Shown here: piece by piece, positions 50,626 through 62,243 of the stretch
Layout: each line of letters begins with the position of its first letter
Numbering within the stretch: the first letter of the stretch is position 1
The notes under the pieces: generated by a model
Seen by the model: the letters and a program-made list of their open reading frames with translations, nothing else
The model's database searches: none
Told to the model about the DNA's origin: nothing
Position numbers and translations under genes: made by a program
Assembly (NCBI GenBank): GCA_049274945.1
Contig: JBASTP010000002.1
Coordinates: 81,216-145,215 of the forward strand
Direction: 5' to 3'
Origin: Patescibacteria group bacterium
Lineage (GTDB): Bacteria > Patescibacteriota > UBA1384 > GWA2-35-9 > JBASTP01
DNA length: 64,000 bases

Positions 50626-51930
50626 CTACAGCAGGGTTGGCTGGACTGTCAACCCTTCGACTCGACTCCGCTCGCTCACGGCATCGCCAAACACCGAAAC
50701 TTTACCATACTCACCATCGTAGCCCGGTTCAATACTAATCGTGCCCTCCCGCACGCGGCGCAGCCCCTCGATAATGCGCGGATCGAGCCGGCCCTCGAGC
50801 TCATTGAGCGGAGCATCCACCAGGAGGGCATATTCGTTACCAAAATCGCTAATAATTTTTTGGTAGCGGTCTTTGATAAATTGACTCGCTTCTCCTTTGC
50901 CCAATGCCTCTGAAATAATTTGCGATAATTGCACGAGTTTTTTGAACGGCGGGCGGGTAATGCCCGATGCTTTGGCCGCCTCCTCAACGCTGCGGTCAGC
51001 CAACGCGTCCACGCGGTATTCAACCCCCACGGTTACCGGCCGCTCACACTTGGGACAAATGCCATTCAATTCTTTTGTCTGGGCCGGCGAGAGCCGCACC
51101 TTGTGCTCGCGGTGCCCGTCCCAATGATATTTGCCCTCTTCCGGGAAAAATTCGATGGTGTAATCAATGCGCGGGGTAATTGTTGGCTTCCAAGTCTTTG
51201 CCGTCGAATTCTTAATGGCCTCAATAATCGTATCGTAACTCGGCTCCTCCATCTCAAAAATCGTGGCTTCGCGCATTAAGTTACCGCCCGAGTGGCCGTC
51301 CCCTGCTGAAACAATGGCCACATGATCGAGCGATGAAAGCCGCCAGTTCATGAGCGGGTCGGAAGACAGGCCGGTTTCAATAGCATGGATATGCTGGGCC
51401 TGATCGCCGAAACATTCCTCAATCGAATCAAATCCGGACATCGAACCAAACAGTGAAAACCAGGGGGTCCAGGCGTGCGCCGGAATAATTTCGATGCGTG
51501 GGTCAATTGATTTAAGAAGTTTCACTAAATCATGGGCCGAAATGCCAAAAATCGGCCGGCCGTCGGCATACAGGTTGCCACGCTTGCCAAGTTCTGTGTT
51601 AATTTTTGCAACCGTTTCGAGCGACGGCGCTAAAATCACGTTGTGAATGCGGCGCAACTTGCCGCCCTGGCTATAAATGCTCGAAATTTCCGAGGTTAAT
51701 ATGTAAAAAGGGCCGGTTTCGTCATCACCCACTCGCCGATATAGCCCATTTCCCAGCGGCTCGAGCTGTTTTTTTAGTTCTGCAAACCAAAGCGGGTGGG
51801 TAAAATCCGCTGAACCGATTAGACCAATCCCTTTAATTTTACTCCAGTTATAGAGACCCTCAACGTCAAGGTTTTTTGATGTGGCGCGGGAATATTTGGA
51901 ATGAAGATGGAGATCGGCAATCAGGCGCAT
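50626..51930 (-). CDS. PHP-domain protein, EndoQ/TIGR00375-like
   Basis: MRLIADLHLHSKYSRATS (PHP motif I), further His/Asp clusters, and a C-terminal zinc ribbon CPKCERPV. Confidence 0.55.
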   Translation of the reverse strand: MRLIADLHLHSKYSRATSKNLDVEGLYNWSKIKGIGLIGSADFTHPLWFAELKKQLEPLGNGLYRRVGDDETGPFYILTSEISSIYSQGGKLRRIHNVILAPSLETVAKINTELGKRGNLYADGRPIFGISAHDLVKLLKSIDPRIEIIPAHAWTPWFSLFGSMSGFDSIEECFGDQAQHIHAIETGLSSDPLMNWRLSSLDHVAIVSAGDGHSGGNLMREATIFEMEEPSYDTIIEAIKNSTAKTWKPTITPRIDYTIEFFPEEGKYHWDGHREHKVRLSPAQTKELNGICPKCERPVTVGVEYRVDALADRSVEEAAKASGITRPPFKKLVQLSQIISEALGKGEASQFIKDRYQKIISDFGNEYALLVDAPLNELEGRLDPRIIEGLRRVREGTISIEPGYDGEYGKVSVFGDAVSERSRVEGLTVQPTLL

Positions 51931-51932
51931 GA

Positions 51933-51952
51933 CCAGATGTTATCACATCTGG
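51933..51952 (-). promoter_or_regulatory. Palindrome CCAGATGT-TATC-ACATCTGG immediately upstream of the EndoQ-like start (putative operator)
   Basis: Perfect 8-bp arms, 2 nt from the ATG. Partially conserved in the duplicate at 52921-52990. Confidence 0.35.
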
Positions 51953-51999
51953 AGTGCAAAATTCAAAGTGAAAAATGGAAAGTTAATCATCAATACCAT

Positions 52000-52374
52000 T
52001 CAATTTCCTGAAGGCGCTTGAATGCTTATCACTTCTCCTTCAATATGGCCGCTTAAATCGTAATAATTATCCGATTGATCGGGAACTATCTTACCACGGA
52101 TTGTGAGTTTAGTACCGTCTCCAGCAAGATACTTTGGCAACGGCAACCCAGTGACATTTTTTAAATCATAAAATTTGCCATCCGCTGTCCTAAAACCAAA
52201 CCTACACTCCGTTGTAGTAACATTACTTTTTATCCTATGGGGCACACAAGTTGTTTCGGCAGTGATCAGGGGAATAGCAGATGACTTATTCACCTTCATT
52301 ACATAATATCCAACGAGTCCTAGCAAAGTTAGTGCAAGAATACTTCCCAGAATAATAAGTACAATACGTATCAT
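52000..52374 (-). CDS. Small membrane-anchored hypothetical protein (124 aa, start MIRIV)
   Basis: AGGGGGA ribosome-binding site 7 nt upstream. The track ORF extends upstream through the poly-G tract (FGGGGGR) only as a translational artefact. Confidence 0.45.
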   Translation of the reverse strand: MIRIVLIILGSILALTLLGLVGYYVMKVNKSSAIPLITAETTCVPHRIKSNVTTTECRFGFRTADGKFYDLKNVTGLPLPKYLAGDGTKLTIRGKIVPDQSDNYYDLSGHIEGEVISIQAPSGN

Positions 52375-52394
52375 AATATTTCCCCCTGAAACTA

Positions 52395-52445
52395 CTTTTT
52401 CCTCTACTCTACCCCCCCCCCCCCCGAAGGAATTATGCAAGGGGG
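52395..52445 (-). promoter_or_regulatory. Promoter with a 14-nt homopolymeric G tract (C14 on the plus strand, 52412-52425) in the -35/-10 spacer
   Basis: Minus strand reads TTGCAT-AATTCCTTC-G14-TAGAGT. Spacer is 23 nt. A paralogous copy lies at 53700-53745. Confidence 0.5.
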
Positions 52446-52774
52446 TACTCGCGACCGTATTTCTTGACTTCAGCAAGCCAGGGAGAATCAGCGGTTTGGT
52501 ATTCTTGCTCGGAGGCAATGTGGGCTTCAATTAAAGGAGAAATTTGAGCGGCGATAATATTCATTTTTGCCAACTCGTTGAAATCGTCTTTCTTTTCAAA
52601 CTCTGGCGAAACCACTAAAAAATCGATGTCACTCCAGTCGTGCACATCCCCTTTCGTATAGGATCCGAATAACACTAAACGAGACACCGGATACCCTGCT
52701 TGCTCAAGAACGATCCGGTAGTCTTGCGCCAGTTTAGCAATTTCTTGCTGGGTTAATTTTGGTTTAAAAACCAT
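52433..52774 (-). CDS. Minimal nucleotidyltransferase (MNT, pol-beta superfamily), toxin-antitoxin component
   Basis: LVLFGSYTKGDVHDWSDIDFLVV matches GS...G...D.D. Confidence 0.7.
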   Translation of the reverse strand: MVFKPKLTQQEIAKLAQDYRIVLEQAGYPVSRLVLFGSYTKGDVHDWSDIDFLVVSPEFEKKDDFNELAKMNIIAAQISPLIEAHIASEQEYQTADSPWLAEVKKYGREYPLA

Positions 52775-52924
52775 TGGAGTAATTCCTTACAAAATTTTTG
52801 AGATCGAGTTGCTGCTTCGCAACTTTAAAGTCCTCTTTTGCTTTTTGTTGCCAAAATTCGATTTTATCTTGTAGCTCCACACTTACATGATACGCTTTAT
52901 TAACTGATTTTAGAAGGGCCAATG
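52764..52924 (-). CDS. Short HEPN-like helical ORF upstream of the MNT gene (possibly truncated; TTG start)
   Basis: KAYHVSVELQDKIEFWQQKAKEDFKVAKQQL. The longer track ORF reads through the duplicated EndoQ-like fragment. Confidence 0.3.
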
Positions 52925-52990
52925 GAGATCGGCAATGAGACGCATGGCCAGATAGTACCACATCTGGAGTGAAAAATTGAGAGCTATTTG
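52921..52990 (-). pseudogene. Duplicated promoter/5' fragment of the EndoQ-like gene (about 85% identical to 51900-51965)
   Basis: Encodes an 11-codon remnant MRLIADLHWPF* and retains the CCAGAT...ATCTGG palindrome. Confidence 0.55.
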
Positions 52991-53682
52991 GTCTTTCGGA
53001 GTTCGTAAACCGCCCAGAAATCTTGTATGAAATCCACTGCAACAGGTTTTGCGGAATATGGATAGGTTTGAAGCGACCTTACATCACCTTCGTGAAATTC
53101 GAATAAATCACCCGATTTTCCCCCAGAATCTTGAGCAGTTTGGTCTGCCTTCTGTTTCAGTTCGATCAGAGCATTGGCCCGTGCTTTCTCTTTTAATTGC
53201 GTGATGGTTTTATCATCAAACTTCAGCTCGGGACCATTGACTCTTGATACCCCAAGAGCTGTAACCGTGTTGGCAATATCTTGCGCTTTTGCAATATCCC
53301 TGATCGTAATTTCTATTGTAGCGTTTCCTTCATAACCGTTTGCCGGGCCGCCTCCCTCTATTCCAGAATAACTCTGATTAACTGAAATTGATCCGGTTTT
53401 AATATCTGAATCGCTAACCCCTTTAGCCTTTAGCGCAGTAAGTAGTGCGGATATCTTTTCATTGGTTTTTTGACGCGTAACATCAGCGGCCTTATCTTTT
53501 TCGTTCACGTCTATTGATAATTCGGCAAGATCAGGAACGGCCTGTACTTTACCTTCTCCTGTTACGGTGATCTCCGATACATTATTGATTGAAAATTCCC
53601 AAGGACGCCAAACAATAAGACCAATCGCGATGATTGCAACAAGGATGAGCGCAAAAATTTGCCAAAAATTGAATCGCATCAT
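52984..53682 (-). CDS. SIMPL-domain (DUF541) periplasmic/membrane-anchored protein
   Basis: N-terminal transmembrane segment. ITVTGEGKVQAVPDLAELSIDV fits the SIMPL core. Confidence 0.65.
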   Translation of the reverse strand: MMRFNFWQIFALILVAIIAIGLIVWRPWEFSINNVSEITVTGEGKVQAVPDLAELSIDVNEKDKAADVTRQKTNEKISALLTALKAKGVSDSDIKTGSISVNQSYSGIEGGGPANGYEGNATIEITIRDIAKAQDIANTVTALGVSRVNGPELKFDDKTITQLKEKARANALIELKQKADQTAQDSGGKSGDLFEFHEGDVRSLQTYPYSAKPVAVDFIQDFWAVYELRKTK

Positions 53683-53699
53683 TCCCCATTTTCCCTATT

Positions 53700-53745
53700 A
53701 CTTTCCTCTACTCTACCCCCCGACGGGAAAATGCAAGAGGGCTAT
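53700..53745 (-). promoter_or_regulatory. Paralogous promoter with a 6-nt G tract in the spacer (TTGCAT-TTTCCCGTC-G6-TAGAGT, spacer 15 nt)
   Basis: The -35 and -10 hexamers, and the downstream GTAGAGGAAAG, are shared with the 52395-52445 copy. Confidence 0.5.
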
Positions 53746-54134
53746 AGTTTTTTCCAAAGTTTTTGTAAAGCGCGGTCGGAAGTAACAAAGTTATTGGTTT
53801 TAGCCTTTTTTGCCATCAGTACAATTAAACAATCATCAAAACTTACTCCGGAACTTTTTTGGTATAAATCGAGCGCCTCAAAGAGCAACTTTTTATCTTC
53901 AACCAAACAATTAGGCACACTAAGTAGCATAAAAATTCTATCCGTCAATGCTTGTTTAGATATTTTGTAGTATGTCCGCGAAGTCCACTCAAATTCGAGG
54001 ATTACCGGCAACGGCAAAAAGAGAACAAGCGATCCCTCTTGTGCTTGTTTCATTAATGTAAAAGATCTTTTGTTGACTGGCCGTTCTAAAAAATAATCAA
54101 GTAAAATATTGGTATCAAGCGCGACTGTTTTCAC
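53742..54134 (-). CDS. vapC: PIN-domain toxin VapC
   Basis: ALDTNILLDYF ... DCLIVLMA. Confidence 0.7.
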   Translation of the reverse strand: MKTVALDTNILLDYFLERPVNKRSFTLMKQAQEGSLVLFLPLPVILEFEWTSRTYYKISKQALTDRIFMLLSVPNCLVEDKKLLFEALDLYQKSSGVSFDDCLIVLMAKKAKTNNFVTSDRALQKLWKKL

Positions 54135-54400
54135 TTGCGTTTTTTTACAATCTCGAGGGCAGCGAGATATTTAGCTTGCTCAATGGCATACGAACGGGGC
54201 TTACCGTCATCATACTTGCTCAGCGAACCGGCGAGCTCTAAAATTCGAGATTCTGATTTAGGAACTGCCGTAAACCCCAAACGAGTGGGCGTCACTTCAA
54301 ATTTGGTGCCGGGCTTTACCGCCAGCTTGCGCCGCACCGCTTTAGGAACAGTAAACTGACCTTTAGAGGTAAGAGTAGTAATATATGGTTTTTCTTGCAT
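54131..54400 (-). CDS. AbrB/MazE/SpoVT-family antitoxin
   Basis: TLTSKGQFTVPKAVRRKLAVKPGTKFEV is a swapped-hairpin barrel signature. Confidence 0.65.
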   Translation of the reverse strand: MQEKPYITTLTSKGQFTVPKAVRRKLAVKPGTKFEVTPTRLGFTAVPKSESRILELAGSLSKYDDGKPRSYAIEQAKYLAALEIVKKRK

Positions 54401-54457
54401 ATTAATTCCTTACGTTTATTGTAAGTCTCCTTACGTTTTGTGTCAATAAGCTATGTA

Positions 54458-55986: not shown

Positions 55987-56027
55987 GAGTTCCTTTCTCA
56001 GATTTTTCGTAAGTTGGGTGTTGGCGA

Positions 56028-56147
<120 letters not shown>

Positions 56148-56310
56148 AAAGGTGGGTTGCTCTCTCTCGGAATGAATCCCAGAGTTGGAACAGGTAAGCA
56201 TTTGACCGATTAGTACGCCTTGGCTCAAACCCTTGCGGGTCTTCCACCTAGCGCCTATCAAGGTCGTGGTCTTCGACCGGTCTATAACGAAGTCTAATCT
56301 TGGGGAGGGC

Positions 56311-56341
<31 letters not shown>

Positions 56342-56419
56342 GCCCGAGCATAGCTACCCAGCACTGCCCTTGGTAGGACAACTGGTACACCAGAGGCTCG
56401 GCTCCTCCGGTCCTCTCGT

Positions 56420-57165
56420 CACGTACTCTTCTATCACTAGAAGCGTAGACTATATCTTCACCCACCTTAGGCGGGGCCGGCATATTAGCTGCCTTTCGGC
56501 AACTCTCAAGCAGATGCTTTCAGTCGTTACGGGGTCAAGCCTAAAACCTCATATAATTCGTCTTTGGTTTTCTTTCTTCGAGTGACGTAGTTTTGCTGCT
56601 GCACACTCAGTATTAAATCAACCAGGTATCTCTTCTCTCTAGGAATCAAACGCAATTCACCTTTTTGAGAGAGTAGTATTGCTGCCTTGTAGATGGCTCT
56701 CGCCTGGATTTTTTTGAAACGGATATATGGCAATAATTTTTTAAGAATTCGTGCCACCTGTTGAAAACCATTAATCCGTAATTCAGTAATACCATCATTT
56801 CGGCGCGAGATATATCCGATCTTGATCCTTTTCTGAATCCACATTAACGGTTGTTCATGACGGCTATCTTGGTAAAAACAGATCGTAACCATGAATCTGT
56901 GACCAAGATTGCCATCTTTCCGTTTCTTGACTTGAAGCATTAAGCTCCCGTCACCATCAAGAAAACCAGCAATATATGCAAAATGAGTTGTAGACTGACT
57001 TCCCACGGTATTGTCTTAACTGGTTTGTGGTCCTCAAGTTAATTGTCTCACAATTTGCTGACCGAAGCAAACTGCCTGCAATGCACTAACCACTATTCCA
57101 ATTAAGATTCCACCGTTATAAGCCGGATTGTCATGCTCGATTGCTCGAACAAGTAGCAATTATTT
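56420..57165 (-). mobile_element. Group I intron D inserted inside the sarcin-ricin loop (between CCUAGU and ACGAGAGG, near E. coli U2656/A2657); carries a LAGLIDADG ORF
   Basis: Exon junction restores CTAGT|ACGAGAGGACCGG. Intron ends ...GATATAGTCTACGC...GTACGTG (terminal G), with P7-like GACTAT/ATAGTC pairing. Confidence 0.65.
56527..57006 (-). CDS. LAGLIDADG homing endonuclease (single motif, 159 aa) within intron D
   Basis: HFAYIAGFLDGDGSLML... Confidence 0.8.
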   Translation of the reverse strand: MGSQSTTHFAYIAGFLDGDGSLMLQVKKRKDGNLGHRFMVTICFYQDSRHEQPLMWIQKRIKIGYISRRNDGITELRINGFQQVARILKKLLPYIRFKKIQARAIYKAAILLSQKGELRLIPREKRYLVDLILSVQQQNYVTRRKKTKDELYEVLGLTP

Positions 57166-57216
57166 ACTAGGAGGGGAACCCCTCAGACTTCAACGCCCAC
57201 AGCAGATGAGGACCGA

Positions 57217-57564
57217 CAGTCTGTTGCTTGATAACCACATCCATAACCGAAATGTATCTGTGGCGCCCAGCACCTTTTGAATAAAAGGTACTGGATCTGC
57301 ATGTCGCCATGCAGCTCGGACTATATCTTCCTCGCCTTTTCAGGCGGGTCTAGCGTATAGTCTCTGAGGATTTCTGCATTACTGCAGATCTTTCCTGCTG
57401 ATTGTCTCCGTAGGTACAGCACCGTATGGCGCGTACCGTAGTCCAACCGGTTGCCCGTTGGAATTTTAGAGAGTTTCCAGCATATAGTCCCGACGGCCTT
57501 ACGGTGTCGGGATCCCGATCTCTTTCGAGCATCGGGACTAAATTTTGAGACAGCAAGGTTGTTT
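57217..57564 (-). mobile_element. Group I intron C, ORF-less (348 nt), inserted at GAGACAGU|UCGGUCC (peptidyl-transferase-centre A2602 region, near L2593-2604)
   Basis: Exons rejoin as ...GTCGCAAGACAGT|TCGGTCCTCATCTGCTGTGGGCG. P7-like GGGACTATATG ... GATATAGTCCG. Terminal G. Confidence 0.6.
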
Positions 57565-57664
57565 ACTGTCTTGCGACGTTCTGAACCCAGCTCACGTGGC
57601 GTTTTAACTGGCGAACAGCCAGACCCTTGGGCGCTGCTCCACGCCCAGGATACGCCGAGCCGAC

Positions 57665-58555
57665 CATGTTTCTCCATGATTACTCATGGCATAGACTATA
57701 TCACCATCCCGCGTTTGGCGGGAGTTCGGCGTCTGATCTACTATTAGAGCAGATCTCACCCGTCTCGCATTAGTTAGAGTCCTCATATAATGCGATAGGG
57801 ATCAGTCGTTACGGGGTTATTGAGAAGCAACTTTATATCGCATGATTGGGGGTATAAAGGGTCGAATGATTTTATGGAGCTTTCGTGATTCAGTATTATT
57901 GAAATACATTCGAAGACCTCTTCCTCCATCTTGATACGCTTTTGCTCGTAAACCAAAGTTTTGGTCTAAAGCTTCAATGAGTAGTTGAATGTCTTTTGGA
58001 TCGAACGCATGGGTCGAGATGCTAGATGTTTTACCTCCATTGAGGTTACCGTCATCCATATACCAAGTGGCTAATGATCGTGGCGACAACATTTCTGAAA
58101 TGTTCAACGGCACTATTTTCTTGCCGTTTCGATAAAACTGTTTGTGGATTTGCGTTAGAATGGGGTGCCGAAAGGTTCGAAACCACCAAGATTTCGTCAC
58201 GTTCTCTCCATCTAAACTAACAAATCTCTGTTGGATGCCACTCGGAGCCCATTTCTTAAATGCTCGCCACTTCCATAAAACATAATCTCTAAATTTTGCC
58301 CCATGTTCGATTTTAAAGTTTGCATTCTTTGCATCGTGACCAACCCTCATTGTGCCATCGCCCAAAAGGGAACCTATTACGATTGATTCCTGACGAGGTT
58401 TCAATCGTAGTCTTCTCTTTCGAGCAATCAACATTTTTGTTTGTGACATTGCTTCTTTGTAAACTTCCCTCGGTATTACCCTCTTTCCTAATTATATCAG
58501 GAGTAGGGCTCCACCGATATAAGCCAAATTTTTCATGCAGGATTGCTCCTGCAAG
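57665..58555 (-). mobile_element. Group I intron B inserted at CACCUCGAU|GUCGGCUC (near L2500-2504); carries a LAGLIDADG ORF
   Basis: Upstream exon follows GGGATAACAGGCTGATCGGGCCCAAGAGTCCATATCGACGGCCCGGTTTGGCACCTCGAT. Downstream exon resumes GTCGGCTCGGCGTATCCTGGG. Confidence 0.7.
57817..58449 (-). CDS. LAGLIDADG homing endonuclease (double motif, 210 aa) within intron B
   Basis: [10 protein letters not shown] and WYMDDGNL motifs. Confidence 0.8.
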
Positions 58556-58612
58556 CGACATTTCTATCGAGGTGCCAAACCGGGCCGTCGATATGGACTC
58601 TTGGGCCCGATC

Positions 58613-58649
<37 letters not shown>

Positions 58650-59062
58650 TCTAGCAGTCTCGTACCTGACTAGAGGATCACTAACTCCGCCTTTCGGCAC
58701 TGCGCGGCTTGTTTGCCTTGCAGTTAAGCTGGCATATGGGTTTGCCCTATCATCTGGATTTCCATCCCAGACTAGCCAACCTTTGAACTCCTCCGTTACC
58801 TTTTGGGAGGACGCCGCCCCAGCGAAACTACCCACCAACCACTGTTCCCCAACAAACGTCGGGGTTAGAATTTCCAATCGTCGAGAGGGGTTTTTCATGG
58901 TCGCCCTTGCGGGCTCCCCCATCACTACACACGAACAATCAAAAACTCAATGGCAAGCTGTAGTAAAGCTCCACGGGGTCTTTCCGTCTTGCTGCGGGTA
59001 CAGCGCATCTTCACGCTGATTGTAATTTCACCGGGTCCCTGGTTGAGACAGTTTCCAGACCG

Positions 59063-59647
59063 TTATGCCATTCGTGCGGGTCGGAACTTCGTGTTCACCC
59101 CACTATTACTAGTGGCACTGACTATATCTTTCAAGATAGAACGATATTTACGATTTCCACTGTTCATCTGATTAGCTAGCTGCTCAATCTTCGCCAAACC
59201 ATGTTCATTTATATGTTCGTGATTTAGCATTAAACTACAGATTTCCTTGAATAGTAGAAAGTCTCGTTGTTTCTCGGATTGTAATGGAAACTGATCGAAA
59301 AACGGGATAATTCTTTCCATTAAATCTTTTAGCGATCTTACTTCATACTTCAATGTTTTATCAGAATAATCAGGGCGGATTGAACCGCATCCAAAATGTT
59401 TCTGCATCTGAAATAATACGTTTGCTCGATCACTATTTTGACTTACCGAGAAACTCGGTCTCACTTCCCATCCAGTCTTAATTGATGCCCGAGGATTAAA
59501 TGAAACACAGAAACATCCTTCGCCATCAACATATCCCGAGATGTAAAATGAGAAATCTCGTTGTGATATTGTTCTATTTTGAGTCGGCGTATTAGTTATC
59601 ATTTTGATAACTCTCGGCCCGAAGGCCTCAGTCGATACGGGGTCCAA
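59063..59647 (-). CDS. LAGLIDADG homing endonuclease (194 aa) of intron A; its last 9 codons read across the 3' splice site into the 23S exon
   Basis: YISGYVDGEGCFCV motif. C-terminal ...VNTKFRPARMA* is encoded by the exon sequence AAGTTCCGACCCGCACGAATGGCATAA. Confidence 0.8.
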   Translation of the reverse strand: MDPVSTEAFGPRVIKMITNTPTQNRTISQRDFSFYISGYVDGEGCFCVSFNPRASIKTGWEVRPSFSVSQNSDRANVLFQMQKHFGCGSIRPDYSDKTLKYEVRSLKDLMERIIPFFDQFPLQSEKQRDFLLFKEICSLMLNHEHINEHGLAKIEQLANQMNSGNRKYRSILKDIVSATSNSGVNTKFRPARMA

Positions 59648-59757
59648 CTGTAGTGGACTTCCCTCGGTATTACCCTTCTTAATTATATCAAGAATAGGGC
59701 TTCACCGATATTAGCCGACAAGGGCAAGCGGATCTCGGCCGCACGCCGGATCCTTGT
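59090..59757 (-). mobile_element. Group I intron A inserted at CUUGUCGGGU|AAGUUCCGACC (near L1951); carries a LAGLIDADG ORF
   Basis: Exon 1 ends ...GGTAGCGAAATTCCTTGTCGGGT. Intron ends ...GATATAGTCAGTGCC...GAACACG. Exon resumes AAGTTCCGACCCGCACGAATGG. Confidence 0.7.
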
Positions 59758-60737
59758 ACCCGACAAGGAATTTCGCTACCATCGAACGGTTCATGTATGT
59801 TAACTCATGGTCTCCCATGAGATCGGACTATATCATCTCCAATGGTGGAGTCTGGCGTATAGTCTCTGAGGGTTCCCATCCCATGGGATGGGCCTTCCCT
59901 GCTGATTGTCTCCGTAGTCCAACCGCTTGCGCGTTGGAATTTTAGAGAGTTTCCAGCATATAGCCAGATTTTTGTTATCGATAACTACTAACCTTAATAG
60001 TTACCGCTGCCGTTCACTCGCGCTTAGGTTTGGAGCTCATGCACAGCTTGCGCCATGCAATCACCCCGCCCCGTAACGTACGAGCACTGGGCAGGCATCA
60101 CTCCGTATACGTCCCTCAAAGGGTTCTGCACGGAGCTAAGTTTTTGTTAAACAGTCGCCTGGAACTCGTTTGCTGCGATCCCGACTTTACGTCGGGACAG
60201 GGCATATCCCTAAGTTACGCCCGATTTTTTGCCGAGTTCCTTAACCAGGGTTTTCCCGATCACCTGAGGCTACTCGCCTCGTCCACCGGAGGCGGTTTGC
60301 GGTACGGTTACCAACTGTAGTGGCCTGCCACTTTTCTAGACGCCCGCTCCCCCAGACGCTACGTAGCCGTAGCAACATCTGAGCTTGCAAACGTGTCATG
60401 ACAGGATAGTCTATTGGTAGTGCCGGAATATTGACCGGCTGTCCTTCTCTTTTGTACAAAAATTAGGACCGACTAACCCCCCGCCGATTGCCGTTGCGGA
60501 GGAAACCTTGGACATGCGGTGGCCTGATTTTTCATCAGGCTAATACGTTACTCATGCCGGCATTCTCACTCCCATACGCTCCAGGGTCGCTTACGCTTCC
60601 CCTTCACTGCAAATGGGACGCTCCCCTACCACGCCGATGCATAGCATCGACATCCGTAGCTTCGGTAAAGGCCTTAAGCCCCGTTGAATTTTCGGCGCAA
60701 TCCACCAATCGGCCAGTGAGCTGTTACGCTATCTTTG

Positions 60738-60775
<38 letters not shown>

Positions 60776-61335
60776 GGGTGAATTACTTCCTTCTCCACTG
60801 AGGCCTTATTTAGGGACCTTAGCTGACGGTCTGGGTTGTTTCCCTTTTGACTCGTGAAGCTTAGCCCTCACGGTCTGACTAGCCGCCTCAAACCCTCGGC
60901 ATTCGGAGTTTGGTTGGATTTGACACCCGAAGGTGCCAAAATCCATTCAGTGCTCTACCTCCGAGGATGTAGCGGCCGCTATACCTATGCATATTTCGGG
61001 GAGAACCAGCTATCTCCGGGTTCGCTTGGCATATTACCCCTATCCCCAAGTCATCCCCTAGTTTTGCCACACTAGTGGGTTCGGACCTCCCCCCGACTTT
61101 CATCGGGGTTCATCCTGCTCAGGGATAGATCACCCGGTTTCGGGTCTATCCGATCGGACTCATCGCCCTATTAGGACTCGCTTTCGCTGCGGCTCGTCGC
61201 CTGAGGCGACTTAACCTTGCCCGAGCGGATAACTCGCCGGCTCATTCTTCAAAAGGCACGCCGTCACCCCGCCAAAGGCGGGGCTCCGACTCCTTGTAAG
61301 CACATGGTTTCAGGTACTATTTCACTCCCCTACCC

Positions 61336-61382
<47 letters not shown>

Positions 61383-62243
61383 GAAAGCATATTTAGCCTT
61401 AGGAGACGATCCTCCCATATTCTTCCCACTGGATTTCACGTGTCCAATGGTACTTTTCTTTGGCACTAGGCCAAAGGATCAATCACGGAGCACGACACAG
61501 TTTTGGCTACGGGGCTATTACCCGCTCTGGCCGGCCTTTCCAGACTCGTTCGCCTACCATGTTATGGCGCTTTCGATCGAGGCTCTTCCCGTTTCGCTCG
61601 CCACTACTCCGGGAATCGCAAAAGAACATTAAAGTTGACAAACGGCTGACTATAATTCAGCCGTCCACCAGCTCGAATACTCTCTTTCCCCCTAACGGGG
61701 GATGTTGCTTTCTTGTCCTCTGCTTACTGAGATGTTTCAGTTCGGCAGGTGCCCAATCCCGATATAATCGGGATTAACGCGTCTTCCACGCGCTGGGTTG
61801 CCCCATTCGGAGATCCCCGGATCAATGCTTCGTTGCCAGCTCCCCGAGGCTTATCGCAGGCTCGTACGTCCTTCTTCGGTGCTTTCCGCCAAGGCATCCA
61901 CCATGTGCCCTTATTCGCTTACCTGTTCCGACTCTGAGAGTAATCTGAGGGCGAAACCCTCGGTTTCTCCCTCAGCGCTCGCGTCGGCAAAGCCGACCCC
62001 GATGCAAAATCGGGGCTTCGCGCTCGCTGCTCCCTCTTCCGCTGTAAAAGCATTGAGGAAACGAGATTACTTTTCGGAACTTGTTACTTTTTGTTCAAGT
62101 TCAGGGTTTAAAAAAGTCCGCTCCAGGCGGACTCATTGCAATGAACTACCTAAAACATAGCCTTAGTTCATTGGAACCAGTCCTCCTGGGAAATAGCTAG
62201 TTGTTGGCGGGTAACCATATGTTGTTTTGTCTGAACCAACCCT

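Follow-up and report, generated by a model that had tools for sequence, protein, structure and literature searches.

Candidate slippage-controlled poly-G promoters of envelope-protein genes next to an endonuclease Q gene in a Patescibacteria genome

Two promoter-like elements, here called P1 and P2, lie on the minus strand of a 64,000-nucleotide (nt) stretch of a Patescibacteria (Candidate Phyla Radiation, CPR) contig (JBASTP010000002.1, positions 81,216 to 145,215 of the forward strand, assembly GCA_049274945.1); we refer to this whole stretch as the window. Both elements hold a pure run of G between their -35 and -10 hexamers, six in P1 and 14 in P2, and both stand in front of a gene for a predicted envelope protein. 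The length of the run differs between the genomes in which we found the element; promoter activity, slippage within populations and its on/off consequences are what we infer. We regard P1 and P2 as good candidates, still unproven, for switches that turn envelope-protein genes on and off by slippage. The explanation that we favour, and consider somewhat probable, is that they are homopolymer promoter switches of the porA/tp0126 type that sit in a replaceable gene slot and change length by slippage.

In detail, P1 and P2 would be copies of a ~45-nt sigma-70-type promoter cassette that recurs in Berkelbacteria-like CPR genomes, with the layout CCC-TTGCAT, a 9-nt pyrimidine-rich block, the G tract, TAnnnT and ARAGGRAAR. 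The cassette would front a replaceable gene slot between toxin-antitoxin modules and a gene of the endonuclease Q (EndoQ) family. Its G tract, filling the 3' part of the -35/-10 spacer, would change length by replication slippage, each G gained or lost shifting the spacer toward or away from the 16-18 nt used by the organism's own RNA polymerase. Eight G (17 nt) are predicted to be on, G7 and G9 intermediate, G6 and G10 (15 and 19 nt) weak, and G14 (23 nt) off; in the sequenced window population the promoter of P1, which precedes a SIMPL-domain gene, would be weak and that of P2, which precedes a gene for a small membrane protein, would be off. Envelope composition would then vary heritably and reversibly, in the manner of contingency loci.

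P2 (52406-52440) reads TTGCAT-AATTCCTTC-G14-TAGAGT with a 23-nt spacer, and its G14 tract (52412-52425, C14 on the plus strand) abuts the -10 hexamer. P1 (53710-53736) reads TTGCAT-TTTCCCGTC-G6-TAGAGT with a 15-nt spacer. These readings agree with those of a first-pass annotation made from the letters of the window, except that the G6 tract had been placed wrongly at 53719-53724 instead of 53716-53721. Extended on the minus strand, P2 (52440-52397) reads ccccc-TTGCAT-AATTCCTTC-G14-TAGAGT-AGAGGAAAA, and P1 (53736-53701) reads ccctc-TTGCAT-TTTCCCGTC-G6-TAGAGT-AGAGGAAAG. The purine-rich block AGAGGAAAA (52397-52405), directly 3' of the P2 -10 box, is the predicted start site and initial transcribed region. 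The -35 box of P2 overlaps the stop codon of the upstream MNT-type nucleotidyltransferase gene (TTGCATAA), and P1 begins 5 nt 3' of the stop codon of a PIN toxin gene. The pattern TTGCAT-N13-25-TAGAGT has two matches in the window against 0.04 expected, and none of 100 shuffles reached two.

The two elements share the exact 20-mer GGGGGGTAGAGTAGAGGAAA. Their downstream sequences had been called identical, which is true only through GTAGAGGAAA and not beyond, and the claim that they differ mainly in tract length overlooks the 9-nt pre-tract block, which also differs at four of nine positions. They had further been called paralogues, but P2 did not arise by simple local duplication of P1: it came with a ~950-bp insertion that is described below. 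As had been noted, C14 at 52412-52425 is the longest homopolymer in the window: the runners-up, all of A/T, reach 8, and the remaining G/C runs are of 6 or fewer. All 13 of the G/C runs of at least 6 in the window are C on the plus strand, i.e. G on the minus strand, and the majority of the long open reading frames (ORFs) in the window also lie on the minus strand.

Such a long tract could have been misassembled, as the first-pass annotation cautioned, and Illumina chemistry is indeed error-prone on long G runs. The G14 length, or the differences in length between assemblies, would then be poly-G sequencing or assembly artefacts. A Logan contig of 2472 bp (L001, run SRR28002976), however, is 100% identical to the window across P1 and P2, including G14 and G6. 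It is a separate assembly, whose reads may or may not be those behind the source metagenome-assembled genome (MAG); since it reproduces both tracts, G14 is not the product of one assembler. Two different assemblies thus recover G14 with correct flanks on both sides. Moreover, independent samples and projects have the tract at the same position in the motif with lengths of 6-10, a range in which Illumina errors are rare. We therefore rejected an assembly artefact and hold this explanation to be hardly credible. In its favour is also a contig from a second run (L016, SRR28002555), of which nt 1-1025 equal window 53439-52415 at 100% identity and which breaks off after 11 G of the tract. This end could reflect a branch in the de Bruijn graph between tract-length alleles, or just low coverage. 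Both tracts have unique flanks and are so short that single Illumina reads can cover them.

We collected the corresponding neighbourhoods of relatives by protein-anchored look-ups, and one further locus (L002, in a MAG labelled Nomurabacteria) by a motif scan of genome contigs. Seven G-tract copies are known to us: G6 and G14 in the window, G10 in L009, G10 and G8 in L011, G6 in L013 and G7 in L002, with spacers of 15, 15, 15, 17, 19, 19 and 23 nt. The element of L009, TTGCAT-TCTTTCGTC-G10-TAGAGT, lies in the order ABC transporter, AbrB, PIN, element, SIMPL, EndoQ, without the ~950-bp insertion of the window. In L011, a first copy (TTGCAT-TCTTCCGCC-G10-TACGCT) lies 3' of a ParE module and 5' of a gene for an anchored protein of 409 amino acids (aa), and a second (L011b, TTGATT-TCTTCCGTC-G8-TACGCT) precedes the gene for a 168-aa protein that adjoins EndoQ. 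In L013 the element reads TTGCAC-AATTTCTTC-G6-TACGAT, with the ATG of a 328-aa anchored protein 8 nt on, and in L002 it reads TTGACT-TTTTTCGT-G7-TAGAGTAGAGGAAAA.

A further locus, L010, has the same CCCTTGCATTCTTCC block followed by an 18-nt A/T spacer without a G tract and the consensus box TATAAT. This G-less copy precedes a homologue of the L011 409-aa gene. That homologue (L010 583-640) has ATA at the position of the L011 ATG start, and the gene caller began it at the TTG of the -35 box instead; it may be a pseudogene or use an unusual start codon. The element was absent from the related loci L012, L014, L015 and L017. L017 does contain a G7 (228-234) in the context gattcctt-G7-accctg, 3' of a 5S ribosomal RNA (rRNA) gene, where the upstream pyrimidine block resembles that of P2 and there is no -10 box. 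The motif scan of the genome contig collection gave five matches, of which only L002 had the full architecture, and missed the source MAG itself. Two matches, both chance-like, came from the metagenome contig collection, again without recovery of the source MAG, and none from the viral contig collection.

Comparison of these copies supports the view that the element is a promoter of the sigma-70 type, for which a spacer of about 17 nt would be optimal. All seven copies have TTG in the -35 box and T1, A2 and T6 in the -10 box, while positions 3-5 of the -10 box vary (GAG, CGC, CGA), and the consensus ARAGGRAAR follows the -10 box in six of the seven. From the -10 box to the ATG, the leader measures 27-31 nt in four copies (the two of the window, L009 and L011b; 31 nt at P2). 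A Shine-Dalgarno-like purine run stands 5' of the ATG in the window, L009 and L011b copies (GGGGGA at the P2 gene), and the 8-nt leader of L013 resembles that of a leaderless gene. Strong -35/-10 pairs in the window as a whole peak at a spacing of 16-17 nt (10 found, ~2 expected) and are at background level at 15 and at 19 nt or more. In L015 and L017, TTGCAT-17-TA(G/C)TAT precedes the conserved, apparently leaderless EndoQ gene. Our reading as a sigma-70-type promoter rests on the conserved hexamers, the TATAAT of L010, the leaders, the EndoQ -10 box and the peak at 16-17 nt. The hexamers of the first-pass annotation thus probably belong to a real promoter, as the invariant TTG and TA...T, the L010 TATAAT at 18 nt, the nearby ATG in L013 and the TTGCAT-17-TAnnAT of EndoQ suggest. 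Although TTGnnn and TAnnnT hexamers occur in all copies, a spacing of 17 +/- 1 nt is found only in L011b (17) and L010 (18), the window copies having 15 and 23 nt.

The conserved element could instead act at the level of RNA, on read-through transcripts from the toxin-antitoxin operons, as a terminator or attenuator hairpin between its C run and G run, or as a G-rich structure with an influence on how the downstream gene is translated. In five of the seven G-tract copies and in L010, TTGCAT is preceded by a CCC(C/T)C run that could pair with the G run, and the upstream genes have no separate terminator. Yet L010 has the CCC run and no G run, no U tract follows 3', and L011b is not preceded by a co-oriented gene. 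Folds of six copies were no better than those of shuffled sequences (z = -0.42 to +0.44). We rejected a structured RNA or terminator on the grounds that the folds match the shuffles, that the terminator scan was empty at the elements and that Rfam gave nothing there in the window or anywhere in L002. An RNA-level role therefore seems very improbable to us.

Within the promoter, the variable part is the G tract, as had been proposed from the window. Among orthologous and paralogous copies it is the only part that varies in length (G6, G7, G8, G10, G10, G14), save that the pre-tract block has 9 nt in six copies and 8 nt in L002, so nearly all variation in spacer length comes from the G run. In all copies the tract is uninterrupted and abuts the -10 box. 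The promoters of the two SIMPL orthologues carry G6 (window) and G10 (L009) at the same position. The arithmetic that eight G would give a 17-nt spacer is right, and one natural copy (L011b) has G8. Thus, of the slipped-strand, phase-variable architecture claimed earlier, the placement of the tract between -35 and -10 and its difference in length between genomes stand, and the switching itself is a proposal by analogy.

The same observations bear on the main rival, neutral drift of an unstable promoter tract. Here the promoter would be real and the G tract an unstable passenger, with expression arising by read-through or by -35-independent initiation and with no selected switch. A passenger should collect interruptions, whereas all 61 tract positions are G while the flanking non-hexamer blocks deviate from the consensus at 21.6% of positions. 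The tract also keeps its place across genomes, including the MAG labelled Nomurabacteria. Outside the element these genomes have hardly any long G/C runs: the ~125 kb of CPR sequence that we examined contains six of at least 7, and five of them lie within this element. Purity together with the spread of lengths is what one would expect if the tract is maintained as pure and unstable, but does not prove that it switches within a population. On the other side, L010 manages without a tract, and the spacings and missing terminators taken up next also fit a passenger. We consider neutral drift unlikely, if by no means negligible.

Several points weigh against the slippage switch. Only one of the seven natural copies has the predicted optimal spacer of 17 nt and three have 15 nt, which would mean either that 15 nt is tolerated as a ground state or that the -35 box has less influence than we assume. 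No terminator was predicted between the upstream toxin-antitoxin genes and the controlled genes in the terminator scan of the window, and therefore read-through could express the controlled genes at any tract length. The conserved 9-nt block and ARAGGRAAR are not explained by a minimal promoter model. A rough estimate for the purity of the tracts, P ~4e-7, is partly circular, since the tract is defined as an uninterrupted run. Lastly, the 168-aa protein behind L011b has no hydrophobic N-terminal stretch and looks soluble rather than envelope-associated.

The other controlled genes, judged from their translations, fit the switch better, and they mostly encode what appear to be N-terminally anchored envelope proteins. 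P1 precedes a gene for a 232-aa protein of the SIMPL/DUF541 family (52984-53682, minus strand; Pfam SIMPL, E = 6.8e-35), whose hydrophobic N-terminal stretch we take, by eye from the translation, to be a membrane anchor. Its orthologue in L009 (P0002) is 84% identical and lies behind the same element. Hydrophobic N-termini are likewise seen in the translations of the L011 409-aa and the L013 328-aa proteins. The gene behind P2 (52000-52374, minus strand) encodes a 124-aa protein with an N-terminal membrane helix (residues 2-28) and a small beta domain with a Cys pair, distantly like DUF5818. The earlier description of a small membrane protein and a SIMPL envelope protein amid toxin-antitoxin modules agrees with the Pfam SIMPL match, the helix at 2-28 and the AbrB/PIN and MNT genes.

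The 124-aa ORF is a real gene. A word-indexed protein search with it matched only the protein itself, whereas a full HMMER search returned 120 remote homologues, a family with invariant C43, C57, T54, G60 and Y105 and the motif VCLPHK...EC..GLKT.DG. DUF5818 was touched in four of 40 relatives. A single-sequence AlphaFold model had a mean pLDDT (predicted local distance difference test) score of 57.9, too poor for a fold search, and the best match of the family profile among PDB sequences, an S-layer protein with E = 0.1, was not significant. A 176-aa ORF (52000-52530, minus strand) runs through G14; it starts at TTG, is in frame with the small membrane protein when the tract is G14, and would open or close with tract length. 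We judged it to be a chance ORF without a counterpart at P1. We rejected a frameshift switch via this ORF, since the MNT gene occupies the same DNA in a different frame and a stop codon lies in frame at P1.

Beyond their own promoters, these genes share a location. In L009, L011, L013 and the window, where it occurs twice since the insertion, the element stands before the gene slot immediately 5' of EndoQ, and the cargo of this slot changes from case to case. In L012 an ABC transporter adjoins EndoQ directly, which we take as the empty site. With this empty site in L012 and with contents that differ among L009, L010, L011, L013 and the window, the region is a variable island. In the window the order on the minus strand is TTGACA-17-TACAAT, AbrB/MazE-like gene, PIN gene, P1, SIMPL gene, a duplicated EndoQ 5' end (D1a), HEPN remnant, MNT gene, P2, 124-aa gene, the functional EndoQ 5' end (D1b) and EndoQ.

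Upon inspection of this order, P2, the 124-aa gene, the MNT gene and the HEPN remnant evidently came with an insertion of ~950 bp that is flanked by a duplicated EndoQ promoter and 5' end. D1a (52922-52983, minus strand), at the left edge, consists of the duplicated promoter and the first eight codons (MRLIADLH, with a stop soon after), and marks the edge of the insertion because in L009 SIMPL directly adjoins EndoQ. D1b (51907-51968, minus strand) is the functional promoter and 5' end, with a -10 box TAACAT 6 nt before the ATG that implies a leaderless gene. The two form a 62-nt direct repeat with 85% identity. Between them lie the MNT-type, antitoxin-like nucleotidyltransferase gene (52433-52774, minus strand; Pfam NTP_transf_2, E = 4.4e-11) and, at ~52775-52901 on the same strand, the truncated N-terminal remnant of a HEPN gene, which matches the HEPN protein of L017 with 39% identity over 33 aa (pairwise E = 3e-5).

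This setting raises the question of whether the ~45-nt element serves chiefly as a junction for recombination or insertion in a cassette system, at which toxin-antitoxin modules and cargo genes would be exchanged beside EndoQ, with incidental hexamers and a G run that is the product or target of recombination. It always lies at the border of variable modules, in a hotspot that is empty or differently filled from genome to genome, and almost every genome has other cargo behind it. Its non-hexamer blocks are conserved, and P2 arrived with an insertion flanked by the 62-nt direct repeats. Nevertheless, the borders of the insertions in the window and in L010 are the EndoQ 5' region and not the element, and the positions that vary within the element are exactly those at which a promoter is tolerant. 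We also looked for an integron-like attC site: the element has no inverted repeats, and no recombinase or integrase domain was found among the scanned proteins of the window island or in the precomputed Pfam lists of the related loci. A junction thus strikes us as improbable.

For the lineage, the promoter switch and the island together suggest a broader possibility, which we advance tentatively and rate at somewhat less than an even chance. Berkelbacteria-like CPR bacteria would possess a modular contingency slot, in which a horizontally exchangeable poly-G cassette sits by toxin-antitoxin modules and EndoQ and in which envelope genes are swapped by recombination; this would be the first case of phase variation by simple sequence repeats to be described in CPR. 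If true, surface variation would have two layers, namely which gene is present and whether it is on.

Known systems offer close precedents. Neisseria opa, which the first-pass annotation had named as an analogue, switches by frameshifting through slipped-strand mispairing at an intragenic pentamer repeat. The mutational mechanism would be the same, but both window tracts lie between genes: the MNT reading frame has ended before the P2 tract begins, and a TAG in the SIMPL frame separates the P1 tract from the SIMPL ATG. The opa comparison accordingly fails, and the precise analogues are porA and tp0126. In Bordetella fim a poly-C tract lies between the activator site and the -10 box. There, as in Neisseria meningitidis opc, promoter homopolymer tracts tune transcription, acting via the activator site or the -35 box, while in our element the -35 box is outside the tract and conserved. 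The opc poly-C overlaps the -35 box (PMC7864442). In N. meningitidis porA, as summarized in the same source, poly-G lies between -35 and -10 and expression depends on reaching 17-nt spacing (PMC7864442). P1 and P2 resemble porA in that a G tract occupies part of the spacer in a promoter of the sigma-70 type that precedes a gene for a surface protein. They differ in occurring in CPR and not in Proteobacteria, in a tract that abuts the -10 box, in a wider observed range (G6-G14, spacers 15-23 nt) and in the use of the same cassette before unrelated cargo genes, and their switching is predicted.

The mechanism had been called unexpected in a small genome. That judgement does not hold, since Mycoplasma, with its small genome, is a typical user of such switches. 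So is Treponema pallidum, where tp0126, an OmpW homologue, has poly-G between -35 and -10, eight or fewer G are permissive at tprE/G/J, and poly-G tracts in several envelope-gene promoters vary in length within strains (PMC7864442). T. pallidum tp0126, tprE/G/J and tprL share with P1 and P2 a small-genome, host-dependent bacterium and poly-G promoters of envelope genes. By contrast, the T. pallidum tracts have been sized in vivo and tested with reporters, while for ours the differences seen are those between genomes, and in T. pallidum the promoters do not represent a single mobile cassette in several copies.

Putative mobile promoters, and promoter propagation, are known in prokaryotes. Like them, our element is a short conserved promoter in several copies before unrelated genes, within and between genomes. 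Unlike them, it contains a putatively hypermutable tract and is tied to one hotspot between an ABC transporter and EndoQ, by toxin-antitoxin modules.

CPR bacteria, which are ultra-small and have not been cultivated, are believed to live on host cells, and little has been described of how they vary their surface; diversity-generating retroelements occur among them. The literature that we searched held no report of phase-variable or homopolymeric promoters in CPR/Patescibacteria, and the only repeat-based hypervariation in CPR found there was an intragenic 9-mer hypervariable repeat in Gracilibacterium (PMC6851277). The mechanism proposed here is thus of a known kind, and its occurrence in CPR appears to be unreported. 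If true, a family of slippage-controlled promoters would add a classical contingency-locus mechanism to CPR, would point to the SIMPL and DUF5818-like proteins as envelope proteins under fluctuating selection, and would mean that one promoter cassette can serve a replaceable gene slot.

Several further features of the island were noted. The EndoQ gene itself (50626-51930, minus strand; PF27218) is the conserved anchor 3' of the variable slot, and its closest named relative, at 86% identity, is from Candidatus Berkelbacteria. In nine loci (window, 51930-51975, minus strand; L009, 2560-2600; L010, 1610-1650; and L011, L012, L013, L014, L015 and L017) a -10 box TAnnAT precedes its ATG by exactly 6 nt, and EndoQ appears to be leaderless throughout this lineage. 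A palindrome lies over this -10 box, CCAGATGT...ACATCTGG in the window and CAGGATAT...ATATCCTG in L010. Because it changes on both arms between genomes, it suggests an operator for a dimeric regulator. Toxin-antitoxin modules have inserted into the EndoQ 5' end at different codons, HEPN/MNT in the window and Polbeta/HepT in L010 (1610-1720). Each insertion leaves a pseudo 5' fragment, with a complete EndoQ promoter and gene downstream, which fits homology-anchored integration on one side and an illegitimate join on the other.

Upstream of P1, an AbrB/MazE-like antitoxin gene (54131-54400) and the PIN toxin gene (53742-54134) form a minus-strand module (53742-54400), preceded by a canonical promoter, TTGACA-17-TACAAT (54446-54418, minus strand). 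On the plus strand, the 16-nt sequence TCCTTACGTTT(A/T)T(T/G)GT is directly repeated at a distance of 21 nt (54407-54443). The two repeats overlap the -35 and -10 boxes of this promoter and are likely the operator of the antitoxin.

Interrupted rRNA genes are typical of CPR. In the window, the rRNA region (56019-61924) comprises the genes for 5S and 23S rRNA, with two group I introns at 57297-57557 and 59804-60006. The ORF at 56527-57006 resembles a LAGLIDADG homing endonuclease when its sequence is judged by eye.

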